Positions 2,584 through 16,262 of a DNA stretch of 19,027 nucleotides are shown here, piece after piece. The stretch comes from an archaeon (GTDB taxonomy: Archaea; Iainarchaeota; Iainarchaeia; Iainarchaeales; 1-14-0-10-31-34), in contig JBDRIL010000049.1 of assembly GCA_043815885.1 (NCBI GenBank), positions 1-19,027 on the forward strand, in the 5' to 3' direction. Both the position numbers and the translations under genes were made by a program. Each line of letters begins with the position of its first letter. Positions within the stretch are counted from its first letter, which is position 1. The notes beneath the pieces were generated by a model. That model did no database searches, had not been told where the DNA came from, and saw only the letters and a program-made list of their open reading frames with translations.

Positions 2584-2934
2584 TTATAATCCATATAATT
2601 CCTTTATTTTTTGTTTTACTTCTTTTAGTTTCTGATTCGAGATTTTTCCAATCTTTTGTGATACGCTTTGCTTTTCTATAACGACCGGAAAATCTGCTTG
2701 AATTACGCTCTCGTGTTTGAGTTTTCCCACTGCAAAATCTTTTGCTGAGAGTTCCACGTCAAAAGGATAATCTTTTCCCTTGCTTGTGACCTTTAAGACG
2801 ATGATATCTTCTGATTTATTGTTGTATTCTTTTTTACTTATTACAAGCGCTGGTCTTATCTTGGCTGAAAATTGACTTGAAAAAGGAATCGGTGCTACTA
2901 CAATTTCTCCTTGTTCAAAATTCGAAGAGTTCAT
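2584..2934 (-). CDS. mazF: Type II toxin, PemK/MazF family endoribonuclease
   Basis: [12 protein letters not shown]...KIRPALVIS...IVLKVTS motifs. Likely start is ATG 2934 (MNSSNF), overlapping the 3' end of the antitoxin gene. Confidence 0.85.
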
Positions 2935-3121
2935 GTGCCTCGCTCCATCCTCTTTTGACTGCATGTTCATGGGCGTGCTTCATCCAAAGCATTTTTTCTT
3001 CTTCAACTTCTCTTGCCTTTTTTTCTATTGCCTGCCTTGCCACTTCTGTCCACTTTATTTCAGCGTGTTTTTTCATCACTTTGTGGAGCTGTTCAGGGAT
3101 AGCCATAGTCATATTAACCAT
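2915..3121 (-). CDS. Antitoxin, ribbon-helix-helix type
   Basis: [32 protein letters not shown] is an RHH pattern. It lies directly upstream of and overlaps the toxin; AGGTGA RBS. Confidence 0.75.
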
Positions 3122-3481: not shown

Positions 3482-3595
3482 TTAAAAAGCTTTAATCCAA
3501 CCCACCAACTCTGAGCAGTGGGTGTAATCCCGCCTCCCGGATTTGCGATTTGGTGGGTGGTTGGTGGTTTGTGGGGTGGGTTTTGTTTCGTTCAT
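3482..3595 (-). CDS. Putative N-terminal fragment (intN) of the att-split tyrosine integrase
   Basis: GAGGTG RBS (3606-3601), then ATG 3595: MNETKPTPQTTNHPPNR-KSGRRDYT (att core)-HCSELVGWIKAF*. The frame through the att core is the same as the open frame leaving the core at 14876. Confidence 0.6.
   Translation of the reverse strand: MNETKPTPQTTNHPPNRKSGRRDYTHCSELVGWIKAF
3521..3546. repeat. att site (tRNA-distal copy), 26-bp direct repeat duplicating the tRNA-Tyr 3' end
   Basis: GGTGTAATCCCGCCTCCCGGATTTGC is identical to 14877..14902; flanking bases differ on both sides. Confidence 0.95.
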
Positions 3596-6050: not shown

Positions 6051-6092
6051 GCTTTTGGTAATAGTGAATGGTAATAGGTAATAGTGGTTTTT

Positions 6093-7640
6093 ATGAATTG
6101 GACTCCTGAACGAATTGATAAATTTACAGAGCTACTGTCTGAAGGCAGGAGTTTGGAATATGTTGCTGATTACTTTGGTGTCAGCTATACTGCCGCCAAG
6201 CAGGCTAAGTATTTTCACAAGGTAAAGAAGTTGAAGCCAGGGAAAAAGAATGTTCAATTGAAAGAGGTTAAGGAGCTTAATAGGCGTGATTTGGCTTCAA
6301 GGATTCGTGTCCTCAAGGGAGAGGAACTCAGAAAAGAAGTCCCCCTGTTTGGCTTTTCTGATAAGCAATTGAAGCAATGGTTTGACAATGTTGAAGGAGT
6401 AGACAAATTTTGCAAGGATGTACTCGGAATTGAATTACAGCCTTATCAATTGAAAATGGTAAAACTAATGCTTTCTCGGAAGCGCTGCTGTTTTGTCCTT
6501 GGTCGGCAGAGCGGAAAGGATTTTTGCATTGCCTGCTTTGTGCTATGGCTTGCTGTGGTTAATCCCAATCAGAGGATTTTACTTGTTTCTGCTGCTCAAA
6601 GGCAATCTGATTTGTTGTTTAATCGTATCATGCAGTTTATTGCTTCTTCCAATGAATTGTTTGACTCTGTTCAAAAGAGCAACATGGAAGTAATTCAGTT
6701 CACAAATGGCTCAGAGGTTTATTCTCTTCCAAGCACTTCCTATATTCGAGGCTTTACCGAGGTTACTTTTGTTTTTCTGAACGAGGTTGCTCACGGAATT
6801 ACTAAGGATACTCTTCAGGCTGTTGAGCCCATGCTTGCAATAAAGCATGGTTCTCTTGTTATGATGTCTTCTCCTTTGGGCACAAGTGGCGTTCTTTGGG
6901 ATGCCTACAATAATCCAATTTATGCCAAGCTTAAGCTTCCTTCAAGCGTGAACAAATTCATTTCAAGGGAGTGGCTGGAACAGCAGAAGAGAACAATGCC
7001 TTCAATCGCTTACGATTGCGAAATTAATGCAAACTTTTCTCAGGCAATTGATTCCTTTTTCAAGCTTGAAACAATCGAATCTGTTTCGGAGGAGTATTCT
7101 CTAAGACAGACTTGCCCAAAAGAACCAGGCAAGAAATATTTTGCTGGAATTGATTGGGGAAGAATCCAGGATTCGAGCGTTGTTACAGTTGTTTCAAGAG
7201 ATGAAGATGAGTTGTTAAAGGTTGAATCAATCATTGAAATGCAGAACGTTCCCTTCAAACAACAGGAAGAAAGAATTAAGCAACTTCATTCTGAGTGGGA
7301 TTTTGAAAACATTGTTTCTGAATACGCTGGCCTGTCAATCAATTCCTGTGAGAACTTGAACAGAGCTGGACTGCCTGTTGAATTCTTCACGCCTACCTTG
7401 GACAGCAAGGCAGAGGCTTACAATCATCTTTTGTGCAAAATGGAGAATGATGAGTTAACAATTCCATTGCATGACAAGTTGCAGTATGAGCTGCGTGTTT
7501 TCAAATTTGAGGTTAATGCTCAGGGAAAGATGCGTTTGCATCATCAGCAAGGCGGGAGCGATGACTTTGTGGATTCTCTTTGCTATGCTGTTTGGGCTGC
7601 TAAAAGTTCAGGGGAAAGTTGGGATGAACCAATTTGGTGA
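6093..7640 (+). CDS. terL: Terminase large subunit with fused N-terminal HTH
   Basis: LQPYQ adenine-binding motif, Walker A GRQSGKD, Walker B-like VFLNE, coupling motif MSSP, RNase H-like nuclease GIDWG..D and C-terminal DDFVDS. N-terminal WTPERIDKFTELLSEGRSLEYVADYFGVS is an HTH. Confidence 0.9.
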   Translation: MNWTPERIDKFTELLSEGRSLEYVADYFGVSYTAAKQAKYFHKVKKLKPGKKNVQLKEVKELNRRDLASRIRVLKGEELRKEVPLFGFSDKQLKQWFDNVEGVDKFCKDVLGIELQPYQLKMVKLMLSRKRCCFVLGRQSGKDFCIACFVLWLAVVNPNQRILLVSAAQRQSDLLFNRIMQFIASSNELFDSVQKSNMEVIQFTNGSEVYSLPSTSYIRGFTEVTFVFLNEVAHGITKDTLQAVEPMLAIKHGSLVMMSSPLGTSGVLWDAYNNPIYAKLKLPSSVNKFISREWLEQQKRTMPSIAYDCEINANFSQAIDSFFKLETIESVSEEYSLRQTCPKEPGKKYFAGIDWGRIQDSSVVTVVSRDEDELLKVESIIEMQNVPFKQQEERIKQLHSEWDFENIVSEYAGLSINSCENLNRAGLPVEFFTPTLDSKAEAYNHLLCKMENDELTIPLHDKLQYELRVFKFEVNAQGKMRLHHQQGGSDDFVDSLCYAVWAAKSSGESWDEPIW

Positions 7641-13860: not shown

Positions 13861-14727
13861 TTAAGGAGTTATTTCATATATTTTCCTTATCGCATCATCC
13901 ACGTCTCTTCCACTCAAGTGCACATACCTTGCGGCCATGTCAGAGCTTTGTGTCCAGCCAAAGAACTGTTTCAACTGTGCTTCAGTAAGATGCTTTGCAA
14001 GGTGCGTTGCTCTGCTGTGCCGGAACATGTGCGGATTGTAGCGCTTGTTCACGCCAGCCTTCTGAAAGGAATTACGCAGGACTTTCTTCACACTGCTGTA
14101 ACACAGCTCCCGGTAAGTATCCCGTTCTCCCTGCTTTCTGAAGTCTCCCTTCCTTTCGTTCATCTTAATCCAGACAAGAGAATCGGGATTATTCTTCAAT
14201 GGATGCCTTTCAAGCCACTTCTTCAATAAGGTAGCACTCCTTACAATTGGAATCCTTCTCTGGCCTGTTTTGCCGCTAACTTGAATTGAAGAAATGTCTT
14301 CTCCAAAGGTTACATTCTTTATTCGCAATGTCAGCATTTCGCCAATGCGAGCACCGCTTTCATAGAGAACATAAATGAAAGCTTTATTTCTAACAAACTT
14401 TGCTGCCTCAACAAGCCTCAGAACTTCTTCCTCTGTAATCAATTCCTCAGGGAGAATGCCATTCTTGGGCTCAGTGTTCTTAATCCAGCTCACAATGCGT
14501 GGATAGTATTCATCCTCTCCCAGCAACCATTTGTAGAACCGCTTCAGAATTATCCTGTAATCAGCTTTTGTCCAAGCAGAATAATCTCTTTGTTCCAGGG
14601 AGCAAAGCAGTGCTTCTATATCCTCCTTGGTTGCTTCACTGAAAGATTGTCCAAGAATTCGTGCGATATCTCTGAGCATGTACACTGTTTTCTTTAATCT
14701 GATTGCTTTTATTCCTTGTGCCCTCAT
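13861..14727 (-). CDS. int: Tyrosine recombinase/integrase (catalytic intC portion)
   Basis: ESGARIGE (R), SGKTG (K), HMFRHSRATH (HxxR), FFGW and ARYVH (Y). The frame stays open upstream to 14844 with integrase-like sequence (RLQSALQAL...ENKQTIIKYINS) but no ATG/GTG/TTG start. Confidence 0.93.
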   Translation of the reverse strand: MRAQGIKAIRLKKTVYMLRDIARILGQSFSEATKEDIEALLCSLEQRDYSAWTKADYRIILKRFYKWLLGEDEYYPRIVSWIKNTEPKNGILPEELITEEEVLRLVEAAKFVRNKAFIYVLYESGARIGEMLTLRIKNVTFGEDISSIQVSGKTGQRRIPIVRSATLLKKWLERHPLKNNPDSLVWIKMNERKGDFRKQGERDTYRELCYSSVKKVLRNSFQKAGVNKRYNPHMFRHSRATHLAKHLTEAQLKQFFGWTQSSDMAARYVHLSGRDVDDAIRKIYEITP

Positions 14728-14876
14728 TGAATTAATGTATTTGATTATGGTTTGTTTGTTTTCAAGTAGTATGTCGGTGATGGTTAGTGCCTGTAAGGCT
14801 GATTGCAGCCTTTCTCTGAAGAATAGATATCGTAGTGTTTTCCACTACTAACTACTGAACTACTAACCACCAAACC

Positions 14877-14902
14877 GGTGTAATCCCGCCTCCCGGATTT
14901 GC
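14877..14902. repeat. att site (tRNA-proximal copy), overlapping the tRNA-Tyr T-arm and acceptor 3' strand
   Basis: Exact 26-bp match to 3521..3546. Confidence 0.95.
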
Positions 14903-15119
14903 ACCGGGGACCTTCCGGTAGCTGCAAAAAACCGCAAACCGCCACTGTCGGTTTACGCCAGTGTACTACTTTCAGTAGTACATACTTCTCACTACTACCT
15001 CGCTTAAAGGCGCGGTAGTAGGATTTCGACTTCGTCGAAACAAAAAAATGCTTCCGTAACAGCTTTTGCTGTCGTTTTTTCATCTACAGCCGGACGCACT
15101 ACTACTATGCAAAGGCGGG
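14884..15119 (-). tRNA. tRNA-Tyr(GTA) with a 164-nt intron at the canonical 37/38 position (exons 15119-15084 and 14919-14884)
   Basis: Acceptor stem CCCGCCT/AGGCGGG+A73 (archaeal C1-G72 Tyr identity), D arm GCAT/GTGC, anticodon arm TCCGG-CT GTA G|A-CCGGA, T arm CCCGG-TGCAAAT-CCGGG. BHB-like core: CUGU pairs with intron GCAG, with bulges AG|A and CU|A. CCA not encoded. Confidence 0.93.
14936..14971. repeat. 36-bp exact repeat, copy 1 (inside the tRNA intron)
   Basis: AAACCGCCACTGTCGGTTTACGCCAGTGTACTACTT is identical to 15129..15164. Confidence 0.9.
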
Positions 15120-15128
15120 AAACTGCAA

Positions 15129-15164
15129 AAACCGCCACTGTCGGTTTACGCCAGTGTACTACTT
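15129..15164. repeat. 36-bp exact repeat, copy 2 (in the tRNA 5' leader)
   Basis: Identical to 14936..14971. Both copies also have CTGCAAAAA to the left and TCAGTAGTAC to the right. Confidence 0.9.
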
Positions 15165-15214
15165 CCCTTTGGTCAGTAGTACTTGCCTCGCAGAAATAAT
15201 TAGTGGGGTAAGTT

Positions 15215-15231
15215 GTTTTAAATACTTTTTT
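15215..15231 (-). promoter_or_regulatory. Probable BRE/TATA promoter of the tRNA-Tyr gene
   Basis: Minus strand reads AAAAAGTATTTAAAAC, implying a start near 15190 and a ~70-nt leader. Confidence 0.45.
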
Positions 15232-15341
15232 ATTGTGTGCTGTAGGCATACAATATTGTTTTTTGATAAAACTCCCAATTTGAGTAGAACTCAAATGGAC
15301 CCCTTTGAATCCTTAGATTCAAATAGGGTTTATTAAAAGTT

Positions 15342-16262
15342 TTATTCCTTGATTCTTTCCTTTATTTTAAGTAACTTGTAAATGGTTATCTTTACCCCGC
15401 TTCTTCTTGATTCCAGTATTTGTTCAAATATGAAGGGATACAGCAAACTAATCCATAAGCCTACACAGAATTTAATTATGAATTGGAATGGCATTCTCAT
15501 GTAGGGAAACATCAGGAGAGGAATGAATGCAATTCCTATTGCTCCTAATCCAATCACTTCTTTAATGATTAAATTTCTTCCTTTAAGATAGGTAGTCTGG
15601 TGTTTTGTTTCTTTTACTATAAAGAATCCGGCATAAAAGCCCAGAAACAGGGCTACATCTGCATAATCGCCTATTACAAATAACAGGATTAAGGTAACCA
15701 CAATTATTAGTACTAATATTAGTTCATCCTCTAATTCAGTTAACCTGAATTTCGCTTTTCTAAATCTTTTGTTTATTTTTACATTGATTCTTCCAACAAA
15801 GAACCCTAAAATGATTCCTCCAATTATGTCTGAAGGAAAATGCACTCCCAAGTAAAGCCTGCTGTATGCAACCAATAAAACTGCAGCAATTAATCCAATG
15901 GTTAGAATCATTGCTGTTCTCTTGTACAGATAACCAAATACCCCGCCAATTATTGCTGTATGTCCTGAGGGAAAGGAATAAGCAAGCTGTTCCTTCATTA
16001 GTACTCTGAAAACAGTTACTGACGGTCTTGCTCTAAGGAAAAAAAATTTAAGCATTCCAGCGCAAATAACTACAAATACAAGCAGATTCACTAAATGAAA
16101 TGCTTCCTTTTCTCTTCCACTCCAGTAAATTATTGCTGCAATTAACAGCCAGAATAAAGGGTCTCCAAGGTAAGTGACAGCCATCATTAGGCTATCTAAA
16201 AACGAATTAGAGTAAGACTGAATTAAGTGAAGGAATACATAATCATAGTAGCCACTGTACAT
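15342..16262 (-). CDS. PAP2 family membrane phosphatase
   Basis: K...RARP, SFPSGH and SRLYLGVHFPSDIIGG motifs; multiple TM segments. Confidence 0.92.
   Translation of the reverse strand: MYSGYYDYVFLHLIQSYSNSFLDSLMMAVTYLGDPLFWLLIAAIIYWSGREKEAFHLVNLLVFVVICAGMLKFFFLRARPSVTVFRVLMKEQLAYSFPSGHTAIIGGVFGYLYKRTAMILTIGLIAAVLLVAYSRLYLGVHFPSDIIGGIILGFFVGRINVKINKRFRKAKFRLTELEDELILVLIIVVTLILLFVIGDYADVALFLGFYAGFFIVKETKHQTTYLKGRNLIIKEVIGLGAIGIAFIPLLMFPYMRMPFQFIIKFCVGLWISLLYPFIFEQILESRRSGVKITIYKLLKIKERIKE

Follow-up and report, generated by a model that had tools for sequence, protein, structure and literature searches.

Why should both exons of a single tRNA gene be preceded by the same structured sequence? 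The question arises at the tRNA-Tyr gene of contig JBDRIL010000049.1, a 19,027-nt stretch of archaeal DNA analysed here at full length (the window), in which a first-pass annotation had noticed that the end of the tRNA intron is duplicated in the 5' leader. The window is contig C49 of G000, a 1.16-Mb DPANN genome in 62 contigs that is 91.7% complete. Below, G000 denotes this host genome, G001-G008 its family relatives, C numbers the contigs of G000 and L numbers the loci fetched from relatives. Our analysis points to an answer that we regard as probable: both copies belong to a set of duplicative hairpin modules, similar to bacterial repetitive extragenic palindromes (REPs), which are tolerated only in RNA that gets cut away.

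The tRNA-Tyr gene and its two hairpin copies

Neither ARAGORN, run with and without its intron option, nor the Rfam tRNA model detected an intact tRNA-Tyr locus. When the exons at 15119-15084 and 14919-14884 were joined by script, ARAGORN called a tRNA-Tyr(GTA) with a 7/4/5/5 cloverleaf; since the joined exons give a normal tRNA-Tyr(GTA), the intervening 164 nt are an intron at position 37/38. A DNA search of 40 relatives for the tRNA-Tyr exons gave matches in 35, and from 14 of them, with matches to both exons, the locus was extracted. Identical exon ends and an intron were present in all 14, with intron lengths of 40-147 nt against 164 nt in G000, and none of the 14 carries inside the intron the terminal hairpin, M5, that is described below. 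The intron therefore predates the module, and by this sequence comparison the tRNA-Tyr gene is genuine and its intron predates the G000 genome. The tRNA itself has a D-loop AGUAGUA, which contains no GG, and a T-loop UGCAAAU, with G instead of the usual U55; both are kept in 14 of 14 relatives, so that both sides of the usual D-loop/T-loop contacts are altered in this tRNA.

The features of the locus, all on the minus strand, are as follows (MFE, minimum free energy structure; P, pairing probability):

15216..15224, minus strand: TATA-like box TATTTAAAA, about 25 nt upstream of the start of the leader hairpins, at a position matching the AAAGCTTTAAATCC box of G001 and G004-G008
15156..15182, minus strand: leader hairpin M4, long form GUACUACU-GACCAAAGGGA-AGUAGUAC, with an inner CC/GG mini-stem; paired in the MFE; the long form occurs also on C52 and C45
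15129..15155, minus strand: leader hairpin M5, ACUGGCGU-AAACCG-ACAGUGG-CGGUUU, the terminal hairpin of the cassette family; paired in the MFE, with stem covariation
15120..15128, minus strand: leader tail UUGCAGUUU between M5 and tRNA +1; pairs locally with ACUGGC in the MFE, and with the anticodon loop at P = 0.00
15084..15119, minus strand: tRNA-Tyr(GUA) exon 1 (positions 1-37), with anticodon-loop CUGU at 15089-15086; from ARAGORN on the joined exons and from relatives
14920..15083, minus strand: intron, 164 nt; its 5' third holds an A-run, a small hairpin and a T7 run, its 3' 121 nt a hairpin cassette
15026..15038, minus strand: intron module M1 (UCGAC-GAA-GUCGA), followed by AAAUCC; replaces the CCGAGC...GCGAGG-AAATCC hairpin that opens leader cassettes, by collinearity and MFE
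14990..15022, minus strand: intron module M2, long hairpin CCUACUACC ... GGUAGUAGUG, from repeat search, MFE and collinearity; M2-like hairpins occur also in the Tyr introns of G005 and G006
14963..14981, minus strand: intron hairpin M4, short form GUACUACU-GAA-AGUAGUAC; paired in the MFE; an identical (100%) short form occurs on C62
14936..14962, minus strand: intron hairpin M5, the same as leader M5, from repeat search and MFE
14920..14935, minus strand: intron tail GCGGUUUUUU-GCAG-CU; GCG extends the M5 stem, the U-run pairs with the intron A-run, and CU/A is the 3' splice bulge
14925-14922, minus strand: intron GCAG, which pairs with anticodon-loop CUGU (P = 0.77)
14884..14919, minus strand: tRNA-Tyr exon 2 (positions 38-73), with discriminator A at 14884 and CCA not encoded; from ARAGORN on the joined exons and from relatives

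We infer from its position that the TATA-like box TATTTAAAA is the tRNA-Tyr promoter; no such box was seen inside the intron when this was read by eye.

A repeat search of the window returned an exact 36-nt direct repeat, 14936-14971 and 15129-15164, with a spacing of 193 nt; an exact repeat of this length within 200 nt is far beyond chance. At both sites the 36-mer is preceded by GTACTACTGA. The leader stem GTACTACT/AGTAGTAC holds 8 extra bases, CCAAAGGG, whereas in the corresponding intron stem the loop is GAA. On the minus strand, the leader runs GTACTACTGA-CCAAAGGG-AAGTAGTAC-ACTGGCGTAAACCGACAGTGGCGGTTT-TTGCAGTTT and then CCCGCC, where exon 1 begins, and the intron end runs GTACTACTGA-AAGTAGTAC-ACTGGCGTAAACCGACAGTGGCGGTTT-GCGGTTTTTTGCAGCT and then ACCGGA of exon 2. 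Both copies continue into a T-run, GCAG and (T/C)T before the exon (leader 15128-15120, intron 14935-14920), and the distance from M5 to the exon is 9 nt in the leader and 16 nt in the intron. The description given by the first-pass annotation was thus accurate: 36 bp are identical before both exons, both hairpins are kept with only a loop changed, the two copies share a tail with GCAG and (C/T)T, and the GCAG of the splice motif is predicted to pair with the anticodon loop.

In full, the last 121 nt of the intron comprise, in order, a T-run, a small hairpin with AAATCC, a long CCTACTACC...GGTAGTAG hairpin, M4 and M5. The same module order, partly in the same words, recurs in the leaders of tRNA-Ile (C45), tRNA-Val(UAC), tRNA-Cys and tRNA-Met and in the 23S flank, and the tRNA-Tyr leader holds only the last two modules of the cassette, M4 and M5. 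The long M2 hairpin of the intron also encloses an M1-like GCGCCTTTAAGCGAGG.

A partition function and the MFE were computed for the 326-nt tRNA-Tyr precursor. In the MFE the intron is a hairpin bundle closed by an A-run/U-run helix, the cloverleaf and splice helix are retained, and the tail of the leader folds back to pair with the bases that flank its own M5 on the 5' side. The splice motif has a 3' bulge of 3 nt (CU/A) and, before the A-run/U-run helix, a 5' bulge of 4-5 nt (AGAU(G)) read by eye; it would represent a relaxed form of the bulge-helix-bulge (BHB), which in its canonical version has a 4-bp helix between two bulges of 3 nt, where the cuts are made. The machinery for ordinary maturation is encoded: the genome has one PF01974 match (90 bits), in a 170-aa open reading frame (ORF) on C32 that combines PF02778 and PF01974 and is the sole copy of EndA, in its single-unit form, and RNase P RNA lies at C14:17627-17933 on the minus strand (117 bits). 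From 14883 downward, the tRNA-Tyr trailer holds no complement of M4 or M5, and an rRNA-type processing stem around the tRNA was not encountered.

Module copies across the genome and its relatives

BLAST with the tRNA-Tyr leader and intron end located M4 + M5 at five other loci in G000, one of them partial:

C52:135-198, M4 + M5
C45:11325-11388, M4 + M5, stopping one base short of tRNA-Ile(UAU)
C62:8265-8313, M4 + M5, within the tRNA-Val(CAC) leader
C8:2356-2418, M4 + M5
C14:17451-17482, partial M4 + M5, in the RNase P RNA flank

Copies near other tRNAs, which the first-pass annotation had proposed to look for by BLAST, were therefore found at tRNA-Ile and tRNA-Val, along with those on C52, C8 and C14. 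The leader copy, with its long-loop M4, is 95% identical to C52 and 92% identical to C45, each over 64 nt, and the intron copy, with its short-loop M4, is 100% identical to C62 over 49 nt, including the GCG after M5. Each of the two thus matches another locus over a longer stretch than the 36 nt that they share. Three copies, those of the tRNA-Tyr leader, the tRNA-Tyr intron and C62, are identical at 36 of 36 positions, which suggests recent copying or gene conversion.

A search for M5 alone, with the pattern GT[A/C]AAC[C/T]G-loop-C[G/A]GTT, gave 21 matches in G000 against one for the control, the same pattern read backwards. Contexts were assigned by reading the listed flanks:

8 matches ending 0-2 nt before a tRNA 5' end: Met (C18), Ile (C19), Val (C21), Trp, Pro(GGG) and Ile (C45), Cys (C61), Val (C62)
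1 match at the exact start of the 23S processing stem, reading ...CAGTT and then GATGCATTGG, with the stem partner CCAATGCATC after the 23S 3' end
2 matches at tRNA-Tyr
1 match opening the tRNA-Gly(CCC) intron, in reverse orientation
1 match after a tRNA-Leu-like acceptor end on C33, reversed
1 match 7 nt past the RNase P RNA 3' end, reversed relative to that RNA
4 matches as inner members of hairpin trains
2 matches about 90 nt before a protein-gene start codon (C8, C52)
1 match without cassette context (C34), probably a chance hit

M5 is arranged in trains of 2-6 hairpins. The module is common to the tRNA-Tyr intron, several leaders and, with M5 reversed, the tRNA-Gly(CCC) intron; no second intron with the same M4 + M5 pair was found. 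When the 110 nt before 43 ARAGORN tRNAs and tRNA-Tyr were surveyed, a cassette-type leader was present in only 13 of these 44 genes, the others having a TATA-like box near -30 and almost no leader.

Several of these loci have features of their own. C8 and C52 share an identical 141-nt overlap with the end of C59, and their sequences part inside the M5 hairpin, so that they form two alternative upstream contexts of one protein gene, whose N-terminus, read by eye, looks MCM-like; the divergence reflects either variation between strains or a hotspot of rearrangement at the cassette. The RNase P RNA converges on a protein gene, and the entire 170-nt spacer between them is one hairpin cassette (locus C14:17430-17933). 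At C33:13841-14011, a tRNA-Leu(CAG) is followed by an acceptor-stem-like mini-helix, GCAGGAGG...CCTCCCTCCTGCA, and immediately afterwards by a cassette of four hairpins in reverse orientation. Two near-identical tRNA-Ile(UAU) genes, C19:1651-1726 and C45:11389-11464, each have a cassette leader and the same trailer hairpin. UAU isoleucine tRNAs are uncommon in archaea.

All eight family relatives contain the M5 pattern, 5-14 times each, where the control pattern occurs 0-3 times. Of 61 genomes of the order, 38 contain it once or more, many of them at control level, and clear enrichment is patchy (G012, 20 vs 2; G023, 12 vs 2; G002, 11 vs 1; G011, 6 vs 0). From relatives, 24 distinct loci were fetched, and a further 20 from G023 and G012.

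Among the 24 loci:
7 sense M5 copies touching a tRNA 5' end (L034, L041, L043, L045 twice, L047, L059)
3 reversed M5 copies touching an exon 1 end (L036, L053, L060)
1 sense M5 touching exon 2 (L053)
2 reversed M5 copies at tRNA 3' ends (L048; L061, 7 nt)
2 M5 copies before the 23S stem (L046, L056)
about 10 M5 copies without an ARAGORN-recognised neighbour

Among the 20 loci of G023 and G012:
1 M5 touching a tRNA 5' end (L065)
4 reversed M5 copies 3-4 nt from tRNA 3' ends (L072, L080, L081, L083)
several M5 copies directly before a Shine-Dalgarno-like sequence and ATG (L066, L067, L071)

Because of this last group, the element is not limited to stable RNAs. At the tRNA-Tyr locus itself, G001 and G004-G007 lack the leader cassette, and their conserved AAAGCTTTAAATCC box stands about 10-20 nt from +1. 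G008 has other hairpins in its place, and G002 has a related M5 that ends in GGCAGTTT directly before CCCGCC, its GCAGTTT being the 3' arm of an AAACTG...CAGTTT hairpin. By this comparison, modules are gained and lost within short evolutionary spans, whereas intron and tRNA persist. In the introns of G002, G005 and G006, which lack M5, GCAG-YU is the usual strand of the splice helix, and other relatives have GCGG or other endings. The tail shared by the two tRNA-Tyr copies would accordingly have two ordinary sources, the splice-helix strand in the intron and the 3' arm of an older M5, as seen in G002, in the leader.

Stem covariation was assessed on 73 unique M5 instances from G000 and all relative loci fetched. 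The inner variable pair is C-G in 25, U-A in 45 and U.G in 3, with no C.A, where independence of the two sides predicts about 15; at the closing position, the 3' base of which lies outside the search pattern, the pair is A-U in 28, C-G in 38 and another combination in 7. All four combinations of the two variable pairs occur, and on these counts the M5 hairpin is under pairing constraint. A pseudoknot of the M5 loop, or a "stem a" with the bases 5' of M5, was considered from complementary words in some sub-types (CACUG/CAGUG, CACGU/ACGUG, ACGC/GCGU) and rejected as weak over the 73 instances: the best complementary run is 3.84 against 3.58 +/- 0.10 with permuted partners (maximum 3.89 in 200 permutations), and the one-base connecting loop makes a true pseudoknot sterically unlikely.

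G000 carries several unrelated hairpin families that behave alike. The family B hairpin, GGTATCGGAACCGTAGGTTCTGAT, is unrelated to M5; in sense orientation it touches four tRNA 5' ends, and reversed copies lie right after the 16S 3' end, the tRNA-Ala(UGC) in the rRNA operon and two tRNAs on C29. A G.T wobble stands on the element's own strand in both orientations. Its loci are:

C45:6103-6134
C20:11698-11729
C26:34348-34378
C31:1578-1659
C14:25429-25454
C14:25101-25130
C29:17971-18002
C29:19784-19815

A family B copy with another hairpin, TGACAAATCAG...CTGATTTGTCA, in its loop is found at C31:1578-1659 and at C14:3646-3727, so that hairpins are nested. A further module family, the third, consists of CCCTTTTCTTTTT-loop-AAAAAGAAAAG with GTTGCCCAAAAGAAAAA after it and occurs in many introns of 55-112 nt, at least seven of them (tRNA-Leu(CAA), Ser(GCU), Asn, Glu, Asp, Ser(GGA) and the gene at C29:17774), and in some trailers (Ile, Pro).

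Competing explanations for the duplicated module

In the account that we favour, the duplicated segment would be two copies of M4 + M5, a member of a dispersed family of duplicative, self-folding hairpins strung into cassettes. These cassettes would reside mostly in the transcribed, discarded parts of stable-RNA precursors, namely 5' leaders, introns, trailers and rRNA spacers. The tRNA-Tyr gene would offer two such places, the leader, which RNase P removes, and the 37/38 intron, which EndA removes, and each exon would be preceded by the same structure because leader and intron each received a cassette ending in M4 + M5. Since the modules fold on themselves in the thermodynamic model and the precursor still makes its cloverleaf and splice helix, they may be harmless passengers that are retained, insertions elsewhere in a stable-RNA gene being presumably lethal. 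Copies would spread or become homogenised as DNA, through gene conversion or a copying process akin to transposition, as is suggested by the patchy presence in close relatives, the near-identical genomic copies and the replacement of sub-types at fixed sites. A small palindromic mobile repeat associated with tRNA genes was among the alternatives offered by the first-pass annotation, and it is the one that the data favour.

Several observations weigh against this account. Placement is more orderly than simple tolerance predicts. In all cases read, the CRGUU end of M5 points towards the mature RNA and the GU end never does; M5 lies 0-2 nt from +1, and the closing G of its C-variant is sometimes the tRNA's own G+1 (Ile on C19, Cys). 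M5 also occupies the same boundary across genera, with differing sub-types, at 23S in G000, G004 and G007 and in the tRNA-Cys and tRNA-Tyr leaders of G000 and G002, a persistence that could reflect function rather than passenger status. Strict polarity, 0-2-nt spacing and cross-genus persistence are left unexplained by the passenger account. The tail of T-run, GCAG and YT is restricted to the two tRNA-Tyr copies, which fits local copying, and the covariation counts overstate independent events because the copies are related to one another. No match to the IS200/IS605-type transposase Y1_Tnp (PF01797) was found in G000, an absence that is no proof in a genome 91.7% complete, and neither target-site duplications, as a MITE would have, nor empty sites for M4 + M5 were noticed while reading the loci, for which no systematic search was made.

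It is also possible, as a tentative extension, that the modules serve as raw material for the gain and growth of archaeal tRNA introns and leaders. The copying mechanism would then place self-folding palindromes preferentially at the loops of hairpins and the ends of helices within strongly transcribed stable-RNA genes, with the anticodon loop, the acceptor-stem foot, the 23S processing-stem foot and the loops of older modules as target sites. The tip-towards-exon polarity of M5 and family B would be the footprint of this mechanism, and tRNA-Tyr would be a gene in which one cassette has come to occupy both of the permitted sites.

The orderly placement could instead point to host elements. M5 and the unrelated family B might stack on the terminal helix of a stable RNA, be it an acceptor stem, a processing stem or a splice helix, as end-marking or insulating hairpins, defining or protecting the processing site or keeping long flanks out of the mature fold, with one M5 needed per exon edge. 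This would account for the exon-facing polarity in four contexts (sense in leaders and at intron ends, reverse at intron starts and in trailers), the spacing of 0-2 nt to +1 in eight tRNAs, the fact that M5 stops exactly where the 23S processing stem has its base in three genomes, from two genera, the compensatory maintenance of the M5 stem pairs, and the obedience of family B to the same rule, sense before four tRNAs and reversed after 16S, tRNA-Ala and two other tRNAs. We nevertheless consider such a role unlikely: a leader of this kind is found in only 13 of the 44 listed tRNA genes, five of eight family relatives have no cassette in the tRNA-Tyr leader, both tRNA-Tyr copies of M5 stand off the exon, by 9 and 16 nt, and copies also precede ordinary protein genes (C8/C52; G023). 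Moreover, transcripts of reversed family B copies would have A.C where the element strand has G.T, so host RNA pairing is not what is conserved there. EndA-made 5' ends at the M5-tRNA junction were considered and rejected, as 0-2 bases are unpaired at this junction, which lacks a second bulge at a distance of 4 bp and is not a BHB; for lack of this geometry EndA is an unlikely reader of it. A duplication specific to tRNA-Tyr, with the intron end copied to the leader or the reverse, perhaps as a fossil of two half-genes with the same leader, is improbable. The two copies are identical at 36 of 36 positions, the T-run, GCAG and YT that follow are common to these two only, and the 3' part of the intron resembles a complete leader cassette; however, C62 is equally identical and matches the intron copy over 49 nt, and the long-loop M4 of the leader, with its upstream bases, matches C52 and C45 over 64 nt. 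The leader GCAGTTT has its counterpart in the M5 3' arm of G002, GCAG-YU is an ordinary splice-helix strand in G002, G005 and G006 without M5, the intron occurs order-wide without M4 + M5, and with no TATA-like box seen in it by eye there is no sign of a 3' half-gene. The earlier suggestion that the duplication records the origin of the intron is weakened by the longer matches at C52 and C62 and by the greater age of the intron.

The main inference of the first-pass annotation had been that the leader mimics the 3' splice site and could compete for exon 1. By base-pairing to the anticodon loop together with the 5' splice site, such a mimic would regulate splicing or allow EndA to trim the 5' end. 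The leader tail, U5-GCAG, could in principle pair with CUGU and the intron A-run as the intron tail does, yet the partition function of the 326-nt precursor gives P = 0.00 for pairing of the anticodon-loop CUGU to the leader GCAG, compared with 0.77 for its pairing to the intron GCAG. Forcing the leader pairing gives -116.7 rather than -123.2 kcal/mol, a cost of 6.5 kcal/mol, and unfolds the acceptor and D arms. Because GCAG-UUU has no exon-side helix partner after it, no BHB can form at the leader, and the only EndA is the 170-aa single-unit form. With RNase P RNA present, as a check proposed in that annotation has now established, and with EndA, ordinary processing needs no mimic. The repeat was found unrelated to splice sites at C52, C8, C45, C62 and C14, an outcome named beforehand as refuting a mimic. 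We regard this idea as very improbable, and the route to 5' ends through EndA falls with it. An assembly artefact, in which the repeat was collapsed or duplicated by the assembler, is hardly credible. Contigs do break or fork at M4 + M5, as where C8 and C52 both overlap C59 by 141 nt. In run X1, a groundwater metagenome, one unitig nevertheless spans 14952-15158 with no differences and links both copies of the 36-mer; X1 is possibly the source sample and hence not independent, and none of the independent runs spans all of this stretch. In addition, each copy has unique flanks, the two differ by the 8-nt loop insert, and exon order and spacing agree with the gene layout of relatives. A relative's contig in run X2 has 114 different letters between identical tRNA-Tyr exon ends. 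Metagenome contigs over the locus are short unitigs that end at repeats, with runs X3 and X6 giving only the conserved exons of relatives.

Neighbouring elements, known systems and implications

Just upstream of the tRNA-Tyr promoter lies a 118-nt multi-hairpin dispersed repeat (15226-15343), with 13 further full-length copies at 86-89% identity and about 14 copies of its last 48 nt elsewhere in G000; its summed contig word depth is high in runs X1-X3. On the other side, a 26-nt exact direct repeat of the tRNA-Tyr 3' end (3521-3546 and 14877-14902) spans 11.3 kb, and a tyrosine recombinase ORF (13861-14727, minus strand; PF00589, 87.6 bits) adjoins the tRNA gene. Between the repeats are a weak terminase-like ORF (6084-7640), a radical-SAM/B12 protein, helix-turn-helix regulators, a 23S intervening-sequence protein and DUF3800. 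From this gene content the stretch looks like an integrated mobile element or provirus with tRNA-Tyr as its attachment site. Additional copies of the tRNA-Tyr 3' end occur in several relatives, and a MazF/PemK-like toxin ORF (2584-2970, minus strand; PF02452, 71 bits) lies just outside the putative integrated element. Rfam identified no family at gathering score in the window, and a permissive search of 14700-15400 gave sub-threshold matches only, the best (E = 0.018) being to a plastid 3'UTR model in the neighbouring repeat. Readings of the CUGA/GAA motifs as C/D-box, H/ACA, K-turn or hammerhead elements were rejected by eye, the remaining boxes or bulge being missing.

Two known kinds of sequence come close, REP-like repeats and sequence shared between tRNA introns, and what is added here is the unexplained exon-facing polarity. 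Transposition of introns between archaeal tRNA genes is described in PMC4033280 (cited from excerpts). As in those Thermoproteales-type introns, near-identical non-coding sequence is found across the tRNA genes of one genome, implying copying; the shared unit here is, however, a hairpin module of 20-60 nt rather than an entire intron, it lies mostly in 5' leaders and also in trailers, in 23S and RNase P RNA flanks and before protein genes, and it enlarged an older tRNA-Tyr intron rather than creating it. M5 is a short imperfect palindrome with many extragenic copies and composite clusters, as REP sequences are. With REPs and bacterial interspersed mosaic elements, and in particular with the CGTC-tagged REPs (Di Nocera et al. 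2013, PMC3733652, in excerpt), the modules share composite arrays, intergenic scatter and variability between relatives. Within that excerpt, CGTC-REPs likewise have no dedicated transposase, and their stem begins with A-T pairs after the tag. REPs begin with a conserved tetranucleotide, GTAG or CGTC. M5 reads (G)CGT[A/C]-AAC...GTT in many copies, with ATGT or GGT before it in others, which resembles the CGTC tag without being identical to it and is offered as a lead only. Unlike bacterial REPs, the element has an archaeal host, a stem of 6-7 bp against 8-9 bp (PMC3733652, as excerpted) and 5-21 copies per genome; it is strongly tied, with fixed polarity, to the edges of stable-RNA genes, and a REP-associated tyrosine transposase was not found.

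The split tRNAs of Nanoarchaeum equitans and Caldivirga (PMC4033280, PMC3293823, both in part) also have intron-like sequence upstream of a tRNA part, and both sequences are removed in maturation; disruption of tRNA genes by insertion is treated in the same portion of PMC3293823. The leaders of split-tRNA halves are mutually complementary and form a BHB, whereas the tRNA-Tyr leader and intron end are identical, the gene is continuous with no second promoter seen by eye, and the leader pairs with neither exon 1 nor the intron. The logic of a processing stem is shared as well, in that M5 and family B have the sense orientation when they lie 5' of an RNA and the reverse one when they lie 3' of it. 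In archaeal rRNA, processing stems that carry BHB motifs consist of inverted sequences that flank a stable RNA. Such stems are the subject of bioRxiv 10.64898/2026.03.23.713588 (in excerpt); in contrast, tRNA-Tyr and most tRNAs here carry the element on one side only, so that it is self-folding, and at the 23S gene M5 sits outside the true processing stem. In the literature searched, with supplements not covered, no description of hairpin cassettes at the edges of DPANN tRNA or stable-RNA genes was found.

The route by which archaeal tRNA introns arrive "remains open" according to an Asgard census preprint (10.64898/2026.10.13.758758). Here an old tRNA-Tyr intron appears to have grown through the modules of which leaders are also built, and the states before and after are on offer in close relatives. 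Module-laden introns also hide essential tRNAs from standard finders, as with the tRNA-Tyr missed by ARAGORN and the Rfam tRNA model, and tRNAs hidden in this way may account for some of the "missing tRNA" patterns in Nanobdellota (preprint 10.64898/2026.05.13.725050, in excerpt). The exon-facing polarity, if functional, would suggest that DPANN archaea mark RNA ends in a way not yet described; if insertion produced it, an undescribed REP-like system of mobility in archaea, without a known transposase, would be indicated.

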